From: Candidatus Multivoradales bacterium
Lineage (GTDB): Bacteria; Acidobacteriota; Thermoanaerobaculia; Multivoradales; JAHEKO01
Direction: 5' to 3'
NCBI GenBank assembly: GCA_965223155.1
Contig: CBDCVR010000015.1
Coordinates: forward strand, 987,097 to 1,051,096
Length of the DNA: 64,000 nucleotides
Shown here: piece by piece, positions 31,505 to 40,865 of the stretch
How the letters are laid out: every line of letters starts with the position of its first letter
Numbering within the stretch: the stretch's first letter is position 1
Notes under the pieces: model-generated
Database searches by the model: none
Told to the model about the DNA's origin: nothing
What the model saw: only the letters and a program-made list of their open reading frames with translations
Made by a program: the position numbers and the translations under genes

Positions 31505-32500
31505 GTGTCCGGCAAGGCGGTCTTGGTTTTCAACCCGTTCGCGGGCCGGCACCGCACCGGCGAGTTGTCCCGAACGGTCGCGGCCGAGCTCGACGGGCAA
31601 GGCTTCTCGGTCACCAGCGTACCCACGCGCGGACCCGGCGATGCCACCACGCGCGCTCGGGTCGCGGCCTCGAGCGGCGCCAGCGCGGTTTTCGCTCTGG
31701 GCGGAGACGGAACGCTGCGCGAATGCGCGGCTGGCCTTGCCGGCTCCGAAACCGCGCTCGGATTCCTTCCCGCCGGAACGGTCAACGTCATGGCCTTCGA
31801 GCTGGGCTTGCCGGGGCGGCCACTCGCCGCCGCCCGCGCCCACCGGAGCTCCCGCGCCCGGGCCTTCGACGTCGGCTACGCCGGGGATGAGACCTTTCTC
31901 ATGCAGTGCTCGGCGGGGTTCGACGCCCGGCTCATCGCCGAGCTCCGTTCCGAGGAGAAGCGGCGGCTGGGCCGGCTGGCGGTGCTGCCGGCGACATTGC
32001 GAAGCCTCGCTCGTTACCGGTTTCCGTCGTTCGGGGTCGAGACCGCCTCGGGCCGGAGCTCGGCCACTCTGGCGGTGGTTTCGAACATTCGGCGCTACGG
32101 CGGTCCCTGGAAGATCGCTCCGGCCGCCTCGACCGAAGATGGCGAGCTCGACCTCGTTCTCCACTCGGGATCGGGCCGCCGGGCGATCCTGGCTTTCGCG
32201 CTACGTCTTCTCTTCGGCCGGCACCTCGCGGGACGGCACTGCCGGCTGGAGCGGGTGCGCGAAGCGACGCTTCTTCCCGCGCCGGGCGCGCCGCGGCAGC
32301 TGGACGGCGAGCGCGGCCCGGCCGCGGAACCCCTTCGCGTCACGGTCGCCCGCCGGGCTCTCCGCATGCTGATCCCGGACCGTGCCTCAGCACGCTCGGC
32401 TGCCTCCGCTGGCTCCGCTGGCTCCGATCGCTCCGATCACTCCGCGAACTCAGTAGATTCCGAGACCGGCCCCGGCTCTGTTGGACGAGACTTCACCTAG
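31505..32500 (+). CDS. Diacylglycerol kinase catalytic-domain family lipid kinase (YegS/BmrU-like)
   Basis: GTG start. The ALGGDGTL motif and overall DAGK_cat layout. The C-terminal tail carries an in-frame 9-bp repeat tract (SAASAGSAGSDRSDHS). Confidence 0.7.
   Translation: MSGKAVLVFNPFAGRHRTGELSRTVAAELDGQGFSVTSVPTRGPGDATTRARVAASSGASAVFALGGDGTLRECAAGLAGSETALGFLPAGTVNVMAFELGLPGRPLAAARAHRSSRARAFDVGYAGDETFLMQCSAGFDARLIAELRSEEKRRLGRLAVLPATLRSLARYRFPSFGVETASGRSSATLAVVSNIRRYGGPWKIAPAASTEDGELDLVLHSGSGRRAILAFALRLLFGRHLAGRHCRLERVREATLLPAPGAPRQLDGERGPAAEPLRVTVARRALRMLIPDRASARSAASAGSAGSDRSDHSANSVDSETGPGSVGRDFT
32402..32443. repeat. 9-bp tandem repeat tract (CCGCTGGCT x2 then CCGATCGCT/CCGATCACT) inside the lipid-kinase gene
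   Basis: A 28-bp segment, ggctccgctggctccgatcgctccgatc (32411-32438), is identical to 40141-40168 in an unrelated gene. Confidence 0.85.
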
Positions 32501-33451: not shown

Positions 33452-33718
33452 ATGTCGATGCCTTCTTCCAGCGATCAAGCCAGCCGCGCGCTCCTGGGGC
33501 GCTTTCTTGCCAAGCTCCGGTTCCCCCAGCTCTTCACCTTGGCCGCGGCGCTTTTCGTCGTCGACCTGGTGGTGCCGGATCTCATCCCGTTCGTGGACGA
33601 GGTGCTCTTGGCGGCCGCGACCTATCTGCTGGCGAACCTGCGCAAGCCCGAAGGGGTCTCGGCCCCGCCGGATGGTCCCAAGCCGCCGATGAAGGACATC
33701 ACCCCGCCCGAGGACTAG
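33452..33718 (+). CDS. Small membrane protein (DUF6116-like)
   Basis: 88 aa; the FPQLFTLAAALFVVDLVVPDLIPFVDEVLLAAATYLLANL hydrophobic core matches the family pattern as I recall it. The tail overlaps the convergent radical-SAM gene. Confidence 0.45.
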   Translation: MSMPSSSDQASRALLGRFLAKLRFPQLFTLAAALFVVDLVVPDLIPFVDEVLLAAATYLLANLRKPEGVSAPPDGPKPPMKDITPPED

Positions 33719-35357
33719 CCGGCGCGGCGACGGGCACAGAGCCTTCCTTGAGGAAGTGCCAGCGCAGGCGCGTTCCCGCCTCCGGCCGCTCGAAGACCTC
33801 GCGCGCGATCCGAGCCTCGAACTCGCGCAGCAGGGCCGCGACCGGAACCCCGGCGGCGGCCCGCTCCAGGACATCGGCGGCGTCCGAGCCGGCCTTGGTG
33901 ATGTAAGCCTGCCAGATCGCCTGGCGCACCGGCATGGTCGAGAGCGACACGTTGGGAATCGCCCGGGCACCCTGGCGCAGCAGGGCGAGCCGGCGCTTCA
34001 AGACGGCGGGGTCCTCGACCGTCGAGCGCTGATAGCCCGTGTACGGCTTGGGGATCAGAATGTTGACCCCGAGATGGATCGCACCCAGACGCCCGGTGGG
34101 AGCCAGCTCTTCGACCATGATCGCCTGGCACTCGCGCGCCAGCTCCAGGATCGCTTCGACATCGGCGTCGGTCTCCCCGGGGAGGCCAACGATGAAGTAG
34201 AGCTTGAGCTGGCGCATGCGGTGGCGGAAGACCAACCGTACCTTGTCGAGCAAGAGGGCGTTCGGGATCGGCTTGTTGAGCTTGACCCGGAGCGAGTCGC
34301 TGCCGGTCTCGGGCGCCAGCGTCAGCGTGCGCTCGCCCGAGGCCCTGAGCGCCGCCAGTAAACCATCGCTCACCGCCGGAATCCGGACCGAGGACAGCGA
34401 GGTGCGAAAGCCGAGCTCGTTGCCGGTTTCGAGGATTCGCTCGAGCTCCGGATGGTCGCCCACGGCGGTGGCGACGAAGCCCAGCCGGTCGGTTACGCCA
34501 CGCGCCCGATCAAGGGCCCCCAGGATGAACCCGGTCGGGTGCCAGCGAAACCGCCCCATGCCGAACGTCGCCCAGCAGTAGCGGCACTTTTCCGGACAGC
34601 CGCGGGACATCTCGATCAGAAACTTGTCCGCGAACTCGGTGCGCGGGGTGACGATGGCGCTGGTGGGCAGATGTCCGGGCAGAGCCATCTGTTCGGCGGT
34701 GAGCTCGAGCTTGGCCAGTTTGGCGAAGTGTTCTCCGGCTCGAGCCTGGTCTTCGGGCCGGTGGTGCTCGGGCACGAAGAACCCGGCGGTCGCCGCCAGA
34801 CGCTCGAGGACCGCCGGCCGCGAGCCTTCTTCGGCAAGCGCCGGCAAAAGCGCCGGCAAGAGGTTCTCGGCGGCACCCAGCGGAAAGACGTCGACGAACT
34901 CGGCCAGCGGCAGGGGGTTGATGGCCGCCGACGCGCCACCCACCAGAACCAGCGGATGGCTGGCGTCGCGCTCGCGCCGGCGCAGCGGGATGCGCGCCCG
35001 GGCCAGCATGTCGAGCATCCGAACGTAGTCCTCTTCGAACGAGATCGAGAAGGCCACGGCGCCCAACTCGGACAGCGGCCGGTCGCTCTCGACCGACCTC
35101 GGCTCCCCGGTGCCGTCGTCGAAGTAGCGCTCGCAGCACCAATCCTCGTACCCATGGACCAGCTCGTAGACGCGGTGAAGCGCCAGCGAGGACATGCCCA
35201 CGTGGTAGCTGTTGGCATAGGCCAGGCCCAGCCGCAAGCGGCCGTGCGGCGAAACGCGCGCCACCGGACGCTCGTCCGCCCGGTGCTCTTCCCAGAACGA
35301 GCGCATTGTGGCCGCATTATTCCAGAGCCTCGGACCCGAAGCGGCGGCGCAAACCAT
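33699..35357 (-). CDS. B12-binding domain-containing radical SAM protein (class B rSAM)
   Basis: CxxxCxxC cluster SRGCPEKCRYCWA; N-terminal cobalamin-binding-like region (RLRLGLAYANSY). ~550 aa. The start is either 35357 or the ATG at 35306. Confidence 0.75.
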   Translation of the reverse strand: MVCAAASGPRLWNNAATMRSFWEEHRADERPVARVSPHGRLRLGLAYANSYHVGMSSLALHRVYELVHGYEDWCCERYFDDGTGEPRSVESDRPLSELGAVAFSISFEEDYVRMLDMLARARIPLRRRERDASHPLVLVGGASAAINPLPLAEFVDVFPLGAAENLLPALLPALAEEGSRPAVLERLAATAGFFVPEHHRPEDQARAGEHFAKLAKLELTAEQMALPGHLPTSAIVTPRTEFADKFLIEMSRGCPEKCRYCWATFGMGRFRWHPTGFILGALDRARGVTDRLGFVATAVGDHPELERILETGNELGFRTSLSSVRIPAVSDGLLAALRASGERTLTLAPETGSDSLRVKLNKPIPNALLLDKVRLVFRHRMRQLKLYFIVGLPGETDADVEAILELARECQAIMVEELAPTGRLGAIHLGVNILIPKPYTGYQRSTVEDPAVLKRRLALLRQGARAIPNVSLSTMPVRQAIWQAYITKAGSDAADVLERAAAGVPVAALLREFEARIAREVFERPEAGTRLRWHFLKEGSVPVAAPASPRAG

Positions 35358-35420
35358 CTTCGTTGAGGCACCGTATAGCCTTCTGTAGACTGGCTCCGCT
35401 TGTTCCGAATCACCTGTCCG

Positions 35421-36173
35421 ATGTCCGGCACGCTACTCATCATGACCCGGGGCGCGGCCGCCGAGGTCCGGCGGCGGCGGCTCCTGCCGCGAGCGGCCGG
35501 CAACGAGCGCGTGCTCCACGCGCTGGGATTCGAGAGCGCCATGGCGGCCGGAGTCCAGGCGGGTTGCCGGATCGTCATCTCCTCTCCGGAGCCCCTGGAT
35601 CCAGCGCTGACCGGCGGCGCCGTCACCCTCCGGCAGCGCGGCCGTACGTTCGGAGAGCGCTTCGCCGACGCCTTGGCCCGCGTCTTCGCCCGCTTCTCCG
35701 GGCCCGTGGTCGTGGTCGGCACCGACACGCCCGATCTCGACGCCGCCCACATCCGGCGCGCCTTCGCCGCGCTCGGATCCGGTCCCGGACGGAGCCGGGT
35801 CGTCTTAGGGCCATCCCGCGATGGCGGCTTCTACCTTCTCGGCGCCAGCCGGCCACTCGAAGACGTGGCCTGGGAGAGCGTGTCCTGGTGCTCTCGGGCC
35901 ACCCGCCAGACGCTTCGCTCGGCGCTCGAACAAGCTGGCCGCGGCGTCGTCTTTCTCCGGCCCCTGGCCGACCTCGACCGGCCGGCCGATCTCGAACGCT
36001 GGCTGGCGGAGCCGTGCCGGTCGGCCGGAGACACACTCTACGCCCTGCGGCGCCGCCTCCGCGGCGAGCTCGCCCGGCCGCAGCCGAACCGGCCGCAGCC
36101 GGGCGCGGCGATCCCGGCGCACCTGGCGGAATCTCTGGCCGCGGCTCCCGACCGCGCGCCGCCTTCCGTCTGA
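35421..36173 (+). CDS. DUF2064 / TIGR04282-family (rSAM/selenodomain-associated transferase 1, GT-A-like) protein of arsenosugar-type clusters
   Basis: VVVVGTDTPDLDAAHIRRAF ... VVLGPSRDGGFYLLG are DUF2064 signatures. Trimmed from TTG 35400 to ATG 35421. Immediately upstream of arsM. Confidence 0.7.
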   Translation: MSGTLLIMTRGAAAEVRRRRLLPRAAGNERVLHALGFESAMAAGVQAGCRIVISSPEPLDPALTGGAVTLRQRGRTFGERFADALARVFARFSGPVVVVGTDTPDLDAAHIRRAFAALGSGPGRSRVVLGPSRDGGFYLLGASRPLEDVAWESVSWCSRATRQTLRSALEQAGRGVVFLRPLADLDRPADLERWLAEPCRSAGDTLYALRRRLRGELARPQPNRPQPGAAIPAHLAESLAAAPDRAPPSV

Positions 36174-36260
36174 GCCGATCTTCGCTCCCCGTACGCGCGG
36201 CCCGGAGGCCGGCGGACGGCACGACTTGACCAGGGCAACCAGAGGAAGGAGGCGAGGCCT

Positions 36261-37421
36261 ATGACGCTCGCAGATGTGGAGAAAGCAGTCCAAGAACGAT
36301 ATAGCCAGGGCGCTCAGGCGCCGGTGGCCGAGCTTTGCTGTCCCGTCGACTACGACCCGAAGTACCTGGAGATCATTCCCGACGAGGTCATCGAGCGCGA
36401 CTACGGCTGCGGCGACCCCAGCCGCTACCTGCGCCCCGGCGAGACGGTCTTGGATCTGGGCAGCGGTACCGGCAAGATCTGTTTCATCGCCGCCCAGGTG
36501 GTCGGGGCCACGGGCCGGGTCATCGGCGTCGACATGACCCCCGACATGCTCGAGGTCGCCCGCCGCAACGCTCCGGTCGTCGCCGAGCGGTTGGGTTACG
36601 CCAACGTCGAGTTCCGCCGCGGCCGGATCCAGGACCTGGCCCTGGATTGGGACTTGATGGATGAGGCGCTGGCGCTGCGGCCAGCCGCCTCCACCGAAGC
36701 GCTGCTCGAAGCCCAGGTCGCGGCTGAGAACCTGCGCCGCGAGCGGCCGCTGGTGGCCGACGGCTCGGTCGACGTGGTGGTGTCGAACTGCGTTCTCAAC
36801 CTGGTCTCGAACGGGGACAAGGCCCGCCTCTTCGCCGAGATCTACCGAGTGCTGGCCGACGGTGGACGGGCGGTCATCTCGGACATCGTCGGCGACGAGC
36901 CCGTGCCCGAGCACCTGCAACACGACGCCGAGCTCTGGAGCGGCTGCATCTCCGGAGCGCTCACCGAGAGCGCTTTCCTCGAGGCATTCGAGGCGGCGGG
37001 CTTTTACGGCGTACGCATCGTCGAGCGCCAGACCGAGCCTTGGCGCACGGTCGAGGGCATCGAGTTTCGCTCGCTGACTCTGGAGGCCTTCAAAGGCAAG
37101 GAGGGGCCCTGTTTCGAGCACAACCAGGCGGTGATTTACAAGGGCCCGTTCAAGGAGGTCCTGGACGACGACGGCCACCGCATGGTCCGAGGCCGGCGCT
37201 ATGCGGTCTGCGCCAAGACCTTCGCGCTGTACGGACGAGAGCCCTACGCCGAGAGCTTCGAGAGGGTCGAGCCCCGGGTGCCGATCGAACCCGGAGACGC
37301 CGCCGCGTTCGATTGCTCGCGCACCGCACTCCGCCACCCGCGAGAGACCAAGGGGCTCGACTACGACCTCACCTCCGAAGCCGCGGAGGCTTGCTGCGCG
37401 CCCGGGAGCGATTGCTGCTGA
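36261..37421 (+). CDS. arsM: Arsenite S-adenosylmethionine methyltransferase ArsM (arsenosugar-biosynthesis type)
   Basis: GGAAGGAGG RBS. N-terminal CC pair (AELCCPVDY), YGCGDP, SAM motif VLDLGSGTG, DMTPDML, VVVSNCVLNL, ELWSGCISGA, and a C-terminal Cys cluster CCAPGSDCC. Same fold and Cys pattern as characterised ArsM/AS3MT. Confidence 0.85.
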   Translation: MTLADVEKAVQERYSQGAQAPVAELCCPVDYDPKYLEIIPDEVIERDYGCGDPSRYLRPGETVLDLGSGTGKICFIAAQVVGATGRVIGVDMTPDMLEVARRNAPVVAERLGYANVEFRRGRIQDLALDWDLMDEALALRPAASTEALLEAQVAAENLRRERPLVADGSVDVVVSNCVLNLVSNGDKARLFAEIYRVLADGGRAVISDIVGDEPVPEHLQHDAELWSGCISGALTESAFLEAFEAAGFYGVRIVERQTEPWRTVEGIEFRSLTLEAFKGKEGPCFEHNQAVIYKGPFKEVLDDDGHRMVRGRRYAVCAKTFALYGREPYAESFERVEPRVPIEPGDAAAFDCSRTALRHPRETKGLDYDLTSEAAEACCAPGSDCC

Positions 37422-38395
37422 TGCCGGACGGAGCCAGCCGGCCTCCGGAGCCCCCGCCCGCACCCGAGGCGCCGTCCGGGGCTTCCCCGCAAGCGGAGTC
37501 GCCGGCTCAGACTGCTCCGCTGGCTCCACTGGCTCCGCTGGCTCCAACAGTCGAGCTCGACCACCTCGACACGCTCTGGTTCCAAGTCGGAGGAACGGTC
37601 TGCAACCTGGCCTGCACCCACTGCTTCGTCTCGTGCTCGCCCACCAACCACACCCACGAGTTCCTCACTCTTGCGGCCATCGAGCCCTATCTGGCCGAAG
37701 CGGCCGAGCTGGGCGTGCGCGAGTTCTACTTCACCGGCGGCGAGCCGTTTCTGAACCCCGAGATGGAAGCCATCCTGGAGCGGACTCTCGCGTCCGGTCC
37801 GGCCACGGTCCTGACCAACGGGTTGCTGCTCGATCCCAAGCGCGCCCGGCGCCTGGCCGAGCTCACCGGGCGCTCGCGCTACTCCCTCGACCTGCGCGTC
37901 TCCCTCGACGGGTACTCGGCCGCGGCCAACGATCCCATCCGGGGCGAGGGCAGCTTCGAGCGCATCCTGGCCGGTATCGGCAATCTCGTCGCCGCCGGCC
38001 TCAACCCGGTCATCACGGTCACCGAGGTCCACGACGAGAACGGCTCGGTGGCGGGCAAGGAGCGGTTCGCGGCGCTCTTGGCCGAGCTCGGCGTCGTCAA
38101 GCCCCGGCTCAAGATCTTGCCGGTCTTCCAGATCGGCGCCGAAGCCGAGCGCAGCAGCGCCTACGCGAGCTGGCAGCGCCTGCGCGAGGGCGACGCGCCC
38201 GAGGAGGGCTGGTCGCACCTCCAGTGCTCGGGCTGCCGCACGGTGACCGACCAGGGCGTCTGGGTCTGCCCGATCCTGGTCAACGAACCCGAGGGCAAGA
38301 TGGGCGAGACGCTGACCGACGCTCTGGACGGCTTCGCGCTGGCTCACCCCGCCTGCTGGACCTGTCACGTCTACGGCGTGAGCTGTCGTACCTGA
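37421..38395 (+). CDS. arsS: Arsenosugar biosynthesis radical SAM protein ArsS (TIGR04167-type rSAM with C-terminal Cys-rich domain; Cys variant, not Sec)
   Basis: ATG overlaps the arsM TGA by 1 nt (TGATG). Radical SAM motif CNLACTHCF. C-terminal Cys-rich tail CSGCRTV ... CPILVN ... HPACWTCHVYGVSCRT. Low-complexity APLAPLAPLAP near the N-terminus comes from a 9-bp repeat insertion. Confidence 0.8.
   Translation: MPDGASRPPEPPPAPEAPSGASPQAESPAQTAPLAPLAPLAPTVELDHLDTLWFQVGGTVCNLACTHCFVSCSPTNHTHEFLTLAAIEPYLAEAAELGVREFYFTGGEPFLNPEMEAILERTLASGPATVLTNGLLLDPKRARRLAELTGRSRYSLDLRVSLDGYSAAANDPIRGEGSFERILAGIGNLVAAGLNPVITVTEVHDENGSVAGKERFAALLAELGVVKPRLKILPVFQIGAEAERSSAYASWQRLREGDAPEEGWSHLQCSGCRTVTDQGVWVCPILVNEPEGKMGETLTDALDGFALAHPACWTCHVYGVSCRT
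37514..37545. repeat. 9-bp tandem repeat (CCGCTGGCT / CCACTGGCT / CCGCTGGCT) inside arsS
   Basis: gctccgctggctccactggctccgctggctcc, encoding PLAPLAPLAP. Confidence 0.85.
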
Positions 38396-38455
38396 CCCGC
38401 CCTGATCCGCCCTGACCCGACTAATCCGACTGACCCGCCCGATCCGCCTGAACCC
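38392..38455. repeat. Intergenic array of about seven degenerate 9-10-bp direct repeats (consensus CCTGACCCGC) starting at the arsS stop codon
   Basis: cctgacccgc cctgatccgc cctgacccga ctaatccgac tgacccgccc gatccgcctg aacc. Confidence 0.8.
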
Positions 38456-38474
38456 AAGAACTCGAAAGCTCGCC

Positions 38475-39515
38475 GTGCCCGACCGCAAACCCCCAGATCT
38501 CTCACAGAGCCCATCCGATCGCGAACGGCGGGCGCGCGCTCGAAAGGCCCAGCACGAGGCGTTCTCCGCGCACAAGGGACTTGCCACCTGGGGAGAAGAC
38601 CTGGTGCCGCTCGAGCGCTTCCGCGCCGCGACCCGAGCGGCCGGCCAGACCCTCTCGGCCGAGGCCCGGCGCACCGCGCGGGCCGAGTTTCTGGCGCCGC
38701 ATCCCGACCCGACGCCGGTCGAGGGTCCCTTCTCCAGGATCCTGGTCTTTGGCGGGGTCTACAGCAACCATCTCGCCCTGGCCGCGGTTCTGGAGACCGC
38801 CAAGAGCCTGGGGGCCGAGGCCGTCTACTGCCTCGGCGACTTGGGCGGCTTCGGGCCCTCGCCCGAGAAGGTCTGGCCGCTTCTCACTTCCGGCGGGGTC
38901 CGCACGCTTCAGGGCAACTACGAGCAGTCTCTGGCGAACGGTCACGAGGACTGCAACTGCGGCTACACCGACCCGCGAGACAACCACTTCGCCGAGCTCT
39001 CCTACCGCTACACCGAGCGCAACTCGTCGGACGCCTTCAAGAAATGGATGGGGCACCTGCCGGCCCGGCGGCGAGTCCGCCTCGGCAAGCACGAGCTTCT
39101 TCTCGTTCACGGTTCGCCCAGACGGGTCAATGAGTTCCTGTTCGACTCCACGACGCCTGACGCGTTTCTGGAGGTTGTTCTCGACCAGGAGCGCGCCGAC
39201 GCGATTCTCTGCACCCATACCGGGCTCCACTGGCAGCGCGCTTTGCCATCCGGGCGCCAGGTCGCGAACGTCGGGGTCATCGGCCGGCCCGCCAACGACG
39301 GCAACACTTCGGTCTGGTACGCGCTCCTGGAAGCCCGCCGAAACGGCGAGCTCGCCATCCGCCTCGAGCCCCTTGCCTACAACCACGAGGCTCTCGCCGA
39401 AGAGATGCGCCGCGAACGGCTGCCCGAGGAGTTCGTCGCCACCATCGAGACCGGCTACTGGACCACCTGTCTCGAGATCCTGCCCGCGCGCGAGCGGGCC
39501 CTCTCGAAGTTCTAG
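38475..39515 (+). CDS. Metallophosphoesterase (calcineurin-like) family protein with an ~85-aa basic N-terminal extension
   Basis: GTG start. ILVFGGVYSN ... CLGDLGGFGP ... GNYE are phosphoesterase motifs I-III; LLVHGSP is the GH-type motif. The start is uncertain. Confidence 0.65.
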   Translation: MPDRKPPDLSQSPSDRERRARARKAQHEAFSAHKGLATWGEDLVPLERFRAATRAAGQTLSAEARRTARAEFLAPHPDPTPVEGPFSRILVFGGVYSNHLALAAVLETAKSLGAEAVYCLGDLGGFGPSPEKVWPLLTSGGVRTLQGNYEQSLANGHEDCNCGYTDPRDNHFAELSYRYTERNSSDAFKKWMGHLPARRRVRLGKHELLLVHGSPRRVNEFLFDSTTPDAFLEVVLDQERADAILCTHTGLHWQRALPSGRQVANVGVIGRPANDGNTSVWYALLEARRNGELAIRLEPLAYNHEALAEEMRRERLPEEFVATIETGYWTTCLEILPARERALSKF

Positions 39516-39551
39516 GACGCCCACGGCCAACCGCGCGAACCAAGGAGACCC

Positions 39552-40865
39552 ATGACCAAATCGGGACACATCGCCATCCTGGGCGCCGGGCCGACCGGGC
39601 TCGAGGCGGCGCTCGCCGCCGCCGACGCCGGCTCTTCCTTTACCTTGTACGAGGCCGGGGAGGGCGTCGGCGCCAACATCCGCGACTGGGGTCATGTACG
39701 GCTCTTCTCGCCCTGGGCCTACGACGTCTCACCCCGGGCGCGGGCGGCCCTGACCCGCGCCGGGGTGCCCGTTCCCGAGGCTACCGATCCGTCCTGCCCG
39801 ACCGGCGCCGAGCTCGTCGAGCGAGTGCTGGCGCCCGTCGCCGCCCTGCCGGCCATCGCCGACCGCCTCCAGACCGGAACCCGCGTCCTCGAAGTCGGGC
39901 GCCAGGGTCTGCTCAAGCACGAGGCCATCGCCTCGGCCGCGCGCGCCGAGCGGCCTTTCCGGCTGCTGGTGGAGGATACGACCGGAACCCAGCGCATCGA
40001 CCGGGCCGACGTGGTCCTGGACTGCACCGGCTCCTACGACCGGCCCAACGCCCTGGGCGACGGCGGCATTGCCGCGCCGGGGGAAGACGCTCTCGGGGAC
40101 CGGATCGAGCGACGCATCCCGGATCTCGAGCGCGACACCCGGCTCCGCTGGCTCCGATCGCTCCGATCGCTCCGATCGCTCGGACGGCGCGTCCTGGTCG
40201 TCGGCGCCGGCCACTCGGCGATGACCGCGGTCGTCGCCCTGGCCGAGGCCGCGGCCGCCGCCGCGATCGAGCCGGACGCGCCCCAGTCCGAGATCCTGTG
40301 GGCGATTCGGGGTGCCGAGCCCGCCTGGCGCATCGACCCGGACGATCCCCTGCCCGAACGCTCGGGCCTGGTCGCCAAGGCGCGAGCGCTCGCCGCGGGC
40401 GGCTCGCCCCACGTCCGCACGCGGTACGGTGTCGTCGTCGACGCCCTGGCCGATGATGGGGACGGCGTCCGGGTCACCCTGCGGGCGACTCACGCCAGCC
40501 CAGCCGCTGGCGGCAACGGATCAGACCCTTCGCCGCAAGACGAGGTCGTGGTCGATCGCATTCTGGCCCTTACCGGCAGCGTCGGCGACCACCGGATCTA
40601 CCGCCAGCTCCAGGTCCACGAGTGCTACGCCACGTCGGGACCCATGAAGCTCGCCGCCGCGCTCCTGGCCGAGGCCGGAGCCGGTGGTGACGGCGCGGCC
40701 GACTGCCTGGCCCAGGAAAGCCACGGCGTCGAGACCCTGACCAATCCGGAGCCCGGCTTCTTCATCCTGGGCGCCAAGTCCTATGGCCGCAACTCGTCGT
40801 TTCTGATGCGCCTCGGCTGGCAGCAGGTTGACGAGGTCTTCGCGGCCCTCGCCACCGAGAGGTAG
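39552..40865 (+). CDS. FAD/NAD(P)-binding oxidoreductase (flavin monooxygenase-like)
   Basis: AAGGAG RBS. N-terminal IAILGAGPTGLEAA (GxGxxG) and a second VLVVGAGHSAMTA dinucleotide motif. Contains the in-frame LRSLRSLRSL repeat. Confidence 0.7.
   Translation: MTKSGHIAILGAGPTGLEAALAAADAGSSFTLYEAGEGVGANIRDWGHVRLFSPWAYDVSPRARAALTRAGVPVPEATDPSCPTGAELVERVLAPVAALPAIADRLQTGTRVLEVGRQGLLKHEAIASAARAERPFRLLVEDTTGTQRIDRADVVLDCTGSYDRPNALGDGGIAAPGEDALGDRIERRIPDLERDTRLRWLRSLRSLRSLGRRVLVVGAGHSAMTAVVALAEAAAAAAIEPDAPQSEILWAIRGAEPAWRIDPDDPLPERSGLVAKARALAAGGSPHVRTRYGVVVDALADDGDGVRVTLRATHASPAAGGNGSDPSPQDEVVVDRILALTGSVGDHRIYRQLQVHECYATSGPMKLAAALLAEAGAGGDGAADCLAQESHGVETLTNPEPGFFILGAKSYGRNSSFLMRLGWQQVDEVFAALATER
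40141..40183. repeat. 9-bp tandem repeat tract (CCGCTGGCT then CCGATCGCT x3) inside the oxidoreductase gene
   Basis: ggctccgctggctccgatcgctccgatcgctccgatcgctcgg. The first 28 bp are identical to 32411-32438. Confidence 0.85.

Follow-up and report, generated by a model that had tools for sequence, protein, structure and literature searches.

Five co-directional genes on the plus strand (35421-40865) of a 64,000-nucleotide stretch of DNA from Candidatus Multivoradales bacterium (Acidobacteriota, Thermoanaerobaculia; assembly GCA_965223155.1, contig CBDCVR010000015.1, positions 987,097 to 1,051,096), hereafter the window, encode a DUF2064 protein, an ArsM-family methyltransferase, an enzyme of the radical S-adenosylmethionine (SAM) type, a metallophosphoesterase and a flavoprotein. 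Taken together, our results make it on balance probable that these genes constitute one organoarsenical-producing module, related as a variant to the ArsM/ArsS (arsenosugar-type) system and equipped with its own supply of trivalent arsenic. This reading is built on homology, conserved residues, gene order, co-occurrence and gene fusions, from which both the product and the chemistry of the individual steps are inferred. A preliminary description of the same DNA had proposed an arsenosugar-type biosynthetic locus. That was right in kind, and its genes and motifs, including VLDLGSGTG and CNLACTHCF, were all found in place, but membership of the radical SAM enzyme in the ArsS family, tailoring by a B12-dependent enzyme and the absence of a reductase did not stand up to closer analysis.

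Radical SAM enzyme

The radical SAM enzyme of the module lies outside the curated ArsS family. It scored 54.2 bits on the ArsS model TIGR04167 against a cutoff of 300, aligning to profile positions 4-147 only, and 11 further members of its family were likewise below this cutoff. The best curated model was that of the Rv1681 family, with 108.9 bits against a cutoff of 380. Thus, the name ArsS that had been given to this protein fails as a statement of family membership, yet the protein is a remote homologue of ArsS that occupies the ArsS slot. When the alignment of the variant family (A1) was compared by hhalign with that of seven canonical ArsS sequences that pass TIGR04167 (A5), the match had a probability of 99.2% (E 2e-19) over 272 columns. 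The cluster site CNLACTHC is at residues 61-68, and five conserved C-terminal cysteines, C269, C283, C312, C315 and C322, align with C252, C267, C308, C311 and C319 of ArsS, including the position that is Cys or selenocysteine (Sec) in ArsS. The protein ends in ...VSCRT followed by TGA and, because its last Cys occupies the Cys/Sec position, it can be taken as the all-Cys form, as the preliminary description had it. Judged from these alignments, the variant radical SAM enzyme is a remote, full-length homologue of ArsS that falls outside the curated family.

We then compared the loci in which ArsM accompanies either type of radical SAM enzyme. When metagenomes were scanned with an ArsM-subfamily alignment, 80 loci (65-74% identity) came up and were classed by the radical SAM gene beside ArsM. 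Canonical ArsS was found there in 45 loci, none of which had the phosphoesterase or the flavoprotein, whereas the variant of the window type was found in 10, nine with the phosphoesterase and five with the flavoprotein. A more distant branch of the variant family adjoins ArsM in L110 and probably in L145, and the remaining ArsM loci were too short or had neither type of radical SAM gene. The two canonical ArsS proteins that were tested, from L116 and L133, scored 435-436 bits on TIGR04167. At most canonical loci ArsS starts no more than 25 bp from the ArsM stop codon, and 12 of them have a gene for a phosphate transporter of the Pit type between the two. Since the same ArsM subfamily precedes ArsS in 45 of the 80 loci and the variant in 10, both radical SAM enzymes fill the same slot.

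At one canonical ArsS locus (L108, 5573-6991), a porin weakly similar to ExtI, the porin of a selenite/tellurite reduction operon, is encoded between DUF2064 and ArsM; homologues of this porin are present in L104, L109 and L130.

Distribution and partners

To survey the variant family, one genome per GTDB species was scanned. This returned 80 loci at 42-78% identity and, counting the window, L001 and L004, gave 83 non-redundant loci. At least 80 species-level genomes carry the family, and they span more than 10 phyla: Acidobacteriota, Planctomycetota, Gemmatimonadota, Eisenbacteria, Latescibacterota, Myxococcota, Bacteroidota/Ignavibacteria, Calditrichota, Chloroflexota, Verrucomicrobiota, Elusimicrobiota, Fibrobacterota and Proteobacteria.

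The phosphoesterase gene adjoins the variant radical SAM gene in 73 of the 83 loci, immediately downstream and, in 80 of 81 copies, on the same strand, with 50-58% identity across phyla. The flavoprotein gene adjoins the radical SAM or the phosphoesterase gene in 47 loci, usually immediately upstream of the former. These two are the commonest partners of the variant radical SAM enzyme. DUF2064 (17-19 of 83) and an ArsM-type gene within 8 kb (about 15-16 of 83) are facultative components of the cassette, and a small CMD/AhpD-like protein is encoded at 8-9 loci. One CMD protein of the cassette passes TIGR04169, named "arsenosugar biosynthesis-associated peroxidase-like", with 121.8 bits against a cutoff of 120; a search of plasmids with a protein of this type gave nothing useful.

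Gene fusions were sought as well. An exhaustive HMMER search for the variant radical SAM family gave 114 cluster representatives at E ≤ 1e-30, and among the best 150 matches listed (E ≤ 3.3e-27) the enzyme was found fused to the orthologous flavoprotein (P0124, P0146), to an ArsM-type methyltransferase (P0138, P0270), to DUF2064 (P0243, the DUF2064 part of which passes TIGR04282 with 163.6 bits against 134), to a phosphoesterase (P0263) and to thioredoxin (P0151). The gene-neighbourhood comparison suggested in the preliminary description was therefore positive for the phosphoesterase and the flavoprotein, and chance adjacency of the two can be ruled out on the strength of their frequencies together with the fusions.

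Phosphate-type and related transporters are encoded inside several of the operons. We found PstSCAB in variant operons at L001, L006, L007 and several metagenome loci, Pit at L045 and L050, and a PhnD-type ATP-binding cassette (ABC) system at L089, which is a compact cassette on plasmid p546-1 of the cultured Roseomonas haemaphysalidis (NZ_CP061178.1, 53228-63989). This plasmid cassette consists of a TrsS/Tes-like radical SAM enzyme of 459 residues, a variant ArsS-like radical SAM enzyme with 34% identity to that of the window, the PhnD-type ABC importer and a phosphoesterase of the cassette's CxC type. In L025 and L035, too, the cassette is adjoined by homologues of the 459-residue enzyme.

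On the contig of L001 the phosphoesterase and flavoprotein genes stay together as an adjacent pair (L090), 18 kb from the radical SAM gene. Between the two halves of the cassette there (ERZ27248692 contig k141_195749), namely a DUF2064-ArsM-PstSCAB-radical SAM block and the phosphoesterase-flavoprotein pair, lie nucleoside-salvage genes and a microcompartment locus with genes for a bacterial microcompartment (BMC) shell, EutN, an aldehyde dehydrogenase and a DeoC/RpiB fusion.

A D-Tyr-tRNA deacylase gene directly 3' of the phosphoesterase gene was considered as a further partner. Elsewhere, tRNA deacylases have served to mark pathways for non-canonical amino acids (PMC13149037). The arrangement was seen in nine loci, all in Planctomycetota (including L043, L060, L066-L069, L071 and L077), and is probably lineage synteny, so we rejected it.

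ArsM and DUF2064

The best NCBIfam models for the window ArsM are all ArsM types, and all were below cutoff: 332.6 bits against 500 on NF040538 (arsinothricin type), 209.1 against 263 on NF008823 (generic) and 128.5 against 400 on NF038099 (arsenosugar type). The protein matches Pfam Methyltransf_31 with 106 bits, consistent with the class I SAM fold. Aligned to CmArsM (4fr0) and to ArsM proteins of ars operons, it keeps the four canonical cysteines (Cys44, 72, 174 and 224 of CmArsM) in the motifs LCCP, YGCGD, SNCVLNL and SGCISGA. It is a long form, with an insertion of about 30 residues and a C-terminal CCxPxxxCC tail. Because copies beside canonical ArsS are below the cutoffs alike, the curated ArsM models evidently do not cover this clade, and the NF040538 score is uninformative on the product for the same reason.

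A similar picture emerged for the transferase, which had been described as DUF2064/TIGR04282-like. It passes Pfam DUF2064 comfortably (80.8 bits; cutoff 25.8), but falls short of TIGR04282 with 97.9 bits against 134; the copies of L045 and L038 scored 118-122. Hence, in the model searches that the preliminary description had advised (TIGR04167, TIGR04282 and the ArsM models), the window proteins were below cutoff throughout.

Phosphoesterase

The phosphoesterase passes Pfam Metallophos_2 (33.7 bits; cutoff 27). Its AlphaFold2 model, with a predicted local distance difference test (pLDDT) score of 83, has a calcineurin-like fold and matches SapH (3qfm), 3rqz and PH1004 (2gju) with target-normalised template-modelling scores (TMt) of 0.73-0.81; pLDDT is low at a CxC loop and in the C-terminal Cys region. 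The CxC, C158-N-C160 within EDC158NC160GYTDPRD, is invariant in the aligned phosphoesterases of the cassette (16 loci and Roseomonas), and was not found on alignment in the solved homologues 3rqz, 2gju, 1nnw and 3qfm. The metal-binding residues have diverged. The M1 site is lost in the cassette proteins, with GGVYSN(H/Y) in place of SDIHxN in motif I and THTG in place of GHTH in motif V, and the ligands of the M2 site are kept (GD, GN, HGS and, in motif V, the first His).

A tblastn search of plasmids with the window phosphoesterase gave 115 records. Its closest relatives there (E 1e-20 to 3e-27) are located in ars operons in five of five cases inspected, with the gene orders arsR-arsN2-arsM-phosphoesterase-acr3 in Adhaeribacter, arsR-phosphoesterase-arsM in Paraclostridium and arsM-arsR-phosphoesterase-arsC-arsC in Rubrobacter, and within ars operons of Hymenobacter and Mucilaginibacter plasmids as well. 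Weak matches (E ~1e-6) are outside ars operons. The C158-N-C160 of the window aligns with C74-G-C76 of the Adhaeribacter protein, and a third conserved cysteine of the cassette proteins, C332 in a C-terminal TGWWTTCLEILPAKER motif, is extra relative to the ars-operon proteins. Phosphoesterase genes have been reported inside ars operons in a study of anaerobic arsenic methylators (PMC12124457), and Car1 of Rufibacter tibetensis is described as an As(V) reductase that needs Cys74 and Cys76 (Shen et al. 2024, as cited in PMC12124457). In sequence, the window phosphoesterase looks like the Car1-type arsenate reductases, a likeness that the preliminary description overlooked when it took the lack of arsC to mean the lack of a reductase.

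The same description had found the N-terminal extension of 85 residues odd. In the AlphaFold2 model these residues (approximately 85) form a folded helical/hairpin domain, which is specific to Thermoanaerobaculia and conserved in the relatives there, so it is no peculiarity of this gene. The public annotation of the protein (P0391, 303 residues) starts 43 codons past the start of the open reading frame (ORF), dropping 38475-38603. Residues H33 to F49 are invariant in 58 homologues and, because they are cut off in the deposited gene model, that model is probably too short.

Flavoprotein

A sequence search of the PDB with the flavoprotein gave matches to the FAD motif alone, and a fold search was therefore used. 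The AlphaFold2 model (pLDDT 82; predicted template-modelling score, pTM, 0.83) had as its top Foldseek match the bacillithiol disulfide reductase Bdr/YpdA (7a76; E 2e-16, TMt 0.81), followed by ferredoxin-NADP reductases (FNRs) of the thioredoxin reductase (TrxR) type, thioredoxin reductases and N-hydroxylating monooxygenases. On TIGR04018, the Bdr/YpdA model, the protein scored 22.5 bits against a cutoff of 339.9. According to the predicted structure, it is a fold relative of Bdr/YpdA and not a member of that family. The position in the FAD motif that we take to be that of the catalytic Cys of YpdA is a Thr (GAGPTG). Two invariant cysteines, Cys358 and Cys385, lie in an extra C-terminal segment that is modelled with low confidence and is probably mobile.

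Proposed function

Remote homology to ArsS, the same slot beside ArsM and facultative partners shared with ArsS make it most economical to see the variant radical SAM enzyme as another former of C-As bonds. The phosphoesterase, with its Car1-like CxC, and the flavoprotein, which resembles a disulfide reductase, are specific to the variant and are therefore best explained as a built-in reducing or chaperone unit. The top fold match of the flavoprotein, a flavin disulfide reductase, and the fusion of thioredoxin to the radical SAM enzyme both lend support to such a thiol-redox role. ArsS adenosylates trivalent dimethylarsenic, DMAs(III), to 5'-deoxy-5'-dimethylarsinoyl-adenosine (DDMAA), and ArsL takes only trivalent arsenic, which is bound by three C-terminal cysteines (PMC13598754). 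A built-in reductase would be chemically sensible given that both enzymes need trivalent arsenic (PMC13598754).

In the mechanism that we envisage, arsenate would enter, in relatives of the window, via the phosphate-type importers encoded within the module. Pentavalent arsenic, in the form of arsenate or of oxidised methylarsenicals, would be reduced to the trivalent substrate by the CxC of the Car1-like phosphoesterase, or this protein would hand the substrate over, and the Bdr-like flavoprotein would re-reduce the resulting disulfide with NAD(P)H, possibly also feeding electrons to the radical SAM cluster. The ArsM-family enzyme would methylate As(III). The variant radical SAM enzyme would hold trivalent arsenic on its C-terminal cysteines and join a C-As bond via a SAM-derived radical, most likely 5'-deoxyadenosyl by analogy with ArsS, and the TIGR04282-like transferase would act later, on the product.

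Several observations weigh against this interpretation. The curated models for ArsS, ArsM and TIGR04282 are all below cutoff for the window's own proteins. No ArsR, Acr3 or ArsC is encoded near any of the 83 loci, and the window module, located among housekeeping genes (ruvAB, mutM, gyrA), gives no sign of arsenic regulation. Most variant loci are without an adjacent ArsM, which could mean that the trio acts on something that needs no methylation, or that ArsM is encoded elsewhere. Three of the four M1 ligands kept by the Car1-like proteins of ars operons are gone from the cassette phosphoesterase (D replaced by G, H by Y, and GHTH without its last His), so its mechanism may differ from that of Car1; the comparison with Car1 was itself made with ars-operon phosphoesterases of the same bacterial family as proxies, and the distant fusion P0263 is without the CxC. 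Finally, the fold of the flavoprotein is also near those of FNRs and N-hydroxylating monooxygenases, and is compatible with the role of an oxygenase or a ferredoxin reductase.

A further-reaching version of the proposal, which we put forward as possible but doubtful, is that the flavoprotein, the variant radical SAM enzyme and the CxC phosphoesterase make up a self-sufficient third lineage of C-As bond formation after ArsS and ArsL. Such a lineage would import pentavalent arsenic via phosphate transporters and, after reduction on a phosphoesterase that had become an arsenic chaperone or a thiol reductase, incorporate it into an organic compound. In the many lineages without an adjacent ArsM, this compound would be other than DDMAA, and the synthesis of organoarsenicals would be common in Planctomycetota, Gemmatimonadota, Acidobacteriota and further phyla that are not known for it. 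We found no description of the cassette in the searchable literature (queried for DUF2064, for phosphoesterases with arsenosugar and for divergent arsS).

Alternative explanations

The phosphoesterase and the flavoprotein could instead be downstream tailoring or detoxifying enzymes attached to the same ArsM and ArsS-like core, an explanation that we consider unlikely. In such a pathway, the flavoprotein would be a flavin-dependent monooxygenase (FMO)/ArsO-like oxygenase that converts a trivalent product to a pentavalent one, and the phosphoesterase would act by hydrolysis on a phospho-intermediate, such as one arising from a nucleotidyl-transferase-like DUF2064 step. The flavoprotein model does match the N-hydroxylases PvdA and KtzI as well as FMOs (query-normalised template-modelling score, TMq, up to 0.62), it has a weak N-terminal match to ArsO, and its DCTGSY stretch resembles the "ATG" motif of FMOs and N-hydroxylating monooxygenases (NMOs); moreover, the phosphoesterase retains its M2-site ligands. 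However, disulfide reductases top the structural matches of the flavoprotein, the closest relatives of the phosphoesterase are Car1-like proteins of ars operons, its CxC is invariant where three M1 ligands are lost, and the pair persists without DUF2064. The preliminary description had listed both proteins as non-canonical accessories; they are the commonest neighbours of the variant enzyme and look, we infer, like a supply unit for trivalent arsenic and reductant rather than like tailoring enzymes.

It is less likely still that the substrate is not arsenic but another thiophilic metalloid or chalcogen (Sb, Se or Te) or an unrelated cellular metabolite, with the partner proteins as recruited homologues. 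ArsM keeps all four of its As(III)-binding cysteines, its subfamily partners the experimentally characterised ArsS family, relatives of the phosphoesterase are found in bona fide ars operons, and the embedded transporters are of the phosphate/arsenate type. These points outweigh, in our judgement, the housekeeping surroundings of the window module, the lack of arsenic regulator or efflux genes near the 83 loci and the fact that TIGR04169 and TIGR04282 owe their names to context rather than to assays. This alternative also draws on Rv1681, the nearest curated relative, which is found with a solute-binding protein (SBP)-like protein related to putative selenate binders, with a TrsS-like (seleno)protein and with thiol-redox proteins.

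Arsenic might be the substrate and the C-As product nevertheless differ from that of ArsS, being arsinothricin-like or an unmethylated arsonate that ArsM methylates afterwards. We regard this as quite improbable. The scarcity of adjacent ArsM genes would fit an enzyme that uses inorganic As(III), and ArsL exemplifies non-canonical SAM cleavage by CxxxCxxC enzymes. The window ArsM scores best on the arsinothricin-type model NF040538 (332.6 bits), but in 45 loci canonical ArsS has as its partner this same subfamily, with the same score. The variant radical SAM enzyme is homologous to ArsS over its full length, with neither an RCCLKC tail nor the N-terminal region of 190 residues seen in ArsL. 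The arsinothricin reading proper was rejected on account of the missing tail (the C-terminus is ...HPACWTCHVYGVSCRT) and the other architecture.

The preliminary description also suggested that a class-B, B12-binding radical SAM enzyme, encoded on the opposite strand approximately 60-110 bp upstream, further methylates the arseno-nucleoside made by canonical ArsM and ArsS. The best model for this protein of 552 residues, which has Radical_SAM_N2 and Radical_SAM domains, is indeed that of a B12-binding family (TIGR03960), but at 176.9 bits against a cutoff of 462.3 the class-B label fails. The gene is present in only seven of the 83 loci, all in close Thermoanaerobaculia, and four of these seven are without ArsM and DUF2064. 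It is missing from L001, L006, L007 and L010, which carry the full module, and from the other phyla that carry it. It is thus a syntenic neighbour and not a component, and the model of B12-dependent tailoring, with no fusion or co-occurrence signal in its favour, is very hard to credit.

Organisation of the locus

The window has a GC content of about 69%, and the closest relatives of the region's proteins are in metagenome-assembled genomes of Thermoanaerobaculia (Acidobacteriota). The TGATG junction between arsM and the radical SAM gene, noted in the preliminary description, is there: the A that ends the arsM stop codon TGA (37419-37421) is also the first base of the ATG at 37421, and the same 1-nt overlap is found in the relatives L004 and L001. 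Upstream of the locus are housekeeping genes (ppiD-like, ruvA, ruvB, diacylglycerol (DAG)-kinase-like and mutM), and downstream are genes for HAD, nucleoside triphosphate (NTP)-transferase, CYTH and M20 peptidase proteins and gyrA. This flanking gene order is kept in L004.

Table 1 Genes of the module and its divergent neighbour in the window
Gene product	Coordinates	Strand	Remarks
Large radical SAM enzyme, 552 residues	33699-35357	minus	Radical_SAM_N2 and Radical_SAM domains
DUF2064 / TIGR04282-like (CofC-like) transferase	35421-36173	plus	ORF from TTG 35400; likely start ATG 35421
ArsM-family As(III) SAM methyltransferase	36261-37421	plus	Motif VLDLGSGTG
Variant radical SAM enzyme, 324 residues	37421-38395	plus	Motif CNLACTHCF
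Metallophosphoesterase, Car1-like, degenerate	38475-39515	plus	Pfam Metallophos_2
NAD(P)H/FAD flavoprotein	39552-40865	plus	Two dinucleotide motifs

Using plasmid-borne references, a tblastn search of the 64-kb window for homologues of ArsR, Acr3, ArsC, ArsN2 and MIP found none (E. coli-type ArsB was not searched for), in agreement with the lack of arsR, arsC and acr3 reported earlier. A scan of this 69% GC region for promoters and terminators also found none.

Two kinds of short repeats were observed. The 9-bp unit GCTCCGCTG forms short tandem arrays at no fewer than seven places in the window (1765, 13156, 32394-32444, 37514-37545, 40142-40181, 44754 and 60267), and an 18-mer of it, allowing up to 3 mismatches, had 15 matches against 0.56 expected. 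Several of these arrays are in frame within genes. The N-terminus of the radical SAM enzyme reads APLAPLAPLAP, and another array corresponds to the LRSLRSLRSL insert of the flavoprotein, where model confidence falls. In addition, the radical SAM and phosphoesterase genes are separated by a spacer (38391-38451) that consists of six copies of a different 9-bp unit, CCTGA(C/T)CCG, beginning from the radical SAM stop codon, and that could be a regulatory or a slippage-prone element.

Significance

To our knowledge, only two radical SAM enzymes are known to form C-As bonds, ArsS (arsenosugars) and ArsL (arsinothricin). The family described here would be a widespread relative of ArsS that current annotation models overlook, all curated models being below cutoff, and its cassette carries its own Car1-like Cys phosphoesterase and a disulfide-reductase-like flavoprotein, often together with phosphate/arsenate importers. 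The interest of the locus is thereby reversed relative to the preliminary description: the seemingly odd phosphoesterase and flavoprotein are the commonest neighbours, present in most loci, and ArsM and DUF2064 are the facultative ones. If our interpretation is true, a larger set of organisms turns inorganic arsenic into organoarsenicals, two uncharacterised protein families gain a role, and a naturally coupled arsenate-to-organoarsenical system becomes available for enzymology and biocatalysis.

Comparison with known systems

The uncharacterised Rv1681 family (NF049973) and the Rv1680 SBP-like protein (NF049985) are related to the module through the best-scoring curated model for the window radical SAM enzyme and through a shared theme, in that a true member adjoins a PhnD-like binding protein, an ArsM-related methyltransferase and thiol-redox proteins. 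However, the score of the window enzyme is far below the family cutoff, and true members have a different N-terminus and are without phosphoesterase or flavoprotein partners. A true Rv1681-family gene is found on a plasmid of Mycolicibacterium vanbaalenii (L092; NZ_CP126902.1, 126373-139068), next to genes for the Rv1680 SBP-like (PhnD-like) protein, a TrsS-like radical SAM enzyme, a DVU_1556-family (ArsM-related) methyltransferase, CcdA, a disulfide oxidoreductase, glutaredoxin and a deiodinase-like protein. This cassette looks metalloid-related.

With the ArsL/ArsM arsinothricin pathway (arsQML of Burkholderia gladioli), the module has in common a radical SAM gene that adjoins one for an ArsM-family methyltransferase, a C-terminal Cys cluster that plausibly binds As(III), and the need for trivalent arsenic. 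ArsL has 428 residues, with CxxxCxxC at 194-201 and the RCCLKC tail, whereas the window enzyme has 324 and carries the motif near residue 61, and the window has neither an ArsQ permease nor ArsR control.

Bdr/YpdA and the TrxR-type FNRs share with the flavoprotein the fold of two dinucleotide-binding domains. The window protein is about 110 residues longer, and its Cys358 and Cys385 are in the extra flexible segment.

Car1-type phosphoesterases, with homologues in Hymenobacteraceae, Paraclostridium and Rubrobacter, share the fold and, in the proxies compared, a CxC aligned exactly with Cys74/Cys76, at 27-34% identity and E-values down to 3e-27, and they too have ArsM as a neighbour. The cassette protein differs from them in having lost the motif I DxH and the final His of GHTH, in its extra C-terminal Cys motif and in never being beside arsR or acr3. 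Car1 is reportedly coupled to thioredoxin, whereas the cassette protein is paired with a dedicated flavoprotein.

The nearest known counterpart of the module as a whole is the ArsM/ArsS pathway. Identity between the window enzyme and ArsS is only about 22-26%, an adjacent ArsM is absent from most variant loci, and the Car1-like CxC phosphoesterase and Bdr-like flavoprotein accompany the variant but none of the 45 canonical ArsS loci. Nonetheless, the two systems share an ArsM of the same subfamily directly upstream of the radical SAM gene, the CxxxCxxC site, the C-terminal five-Cys pattern C-x13/14-C ... C-x2-C-x6/7-C, the DUF2064/TIGR04282 and TIGR04169-type partners, and a phosphate-type transporter inside the operon.

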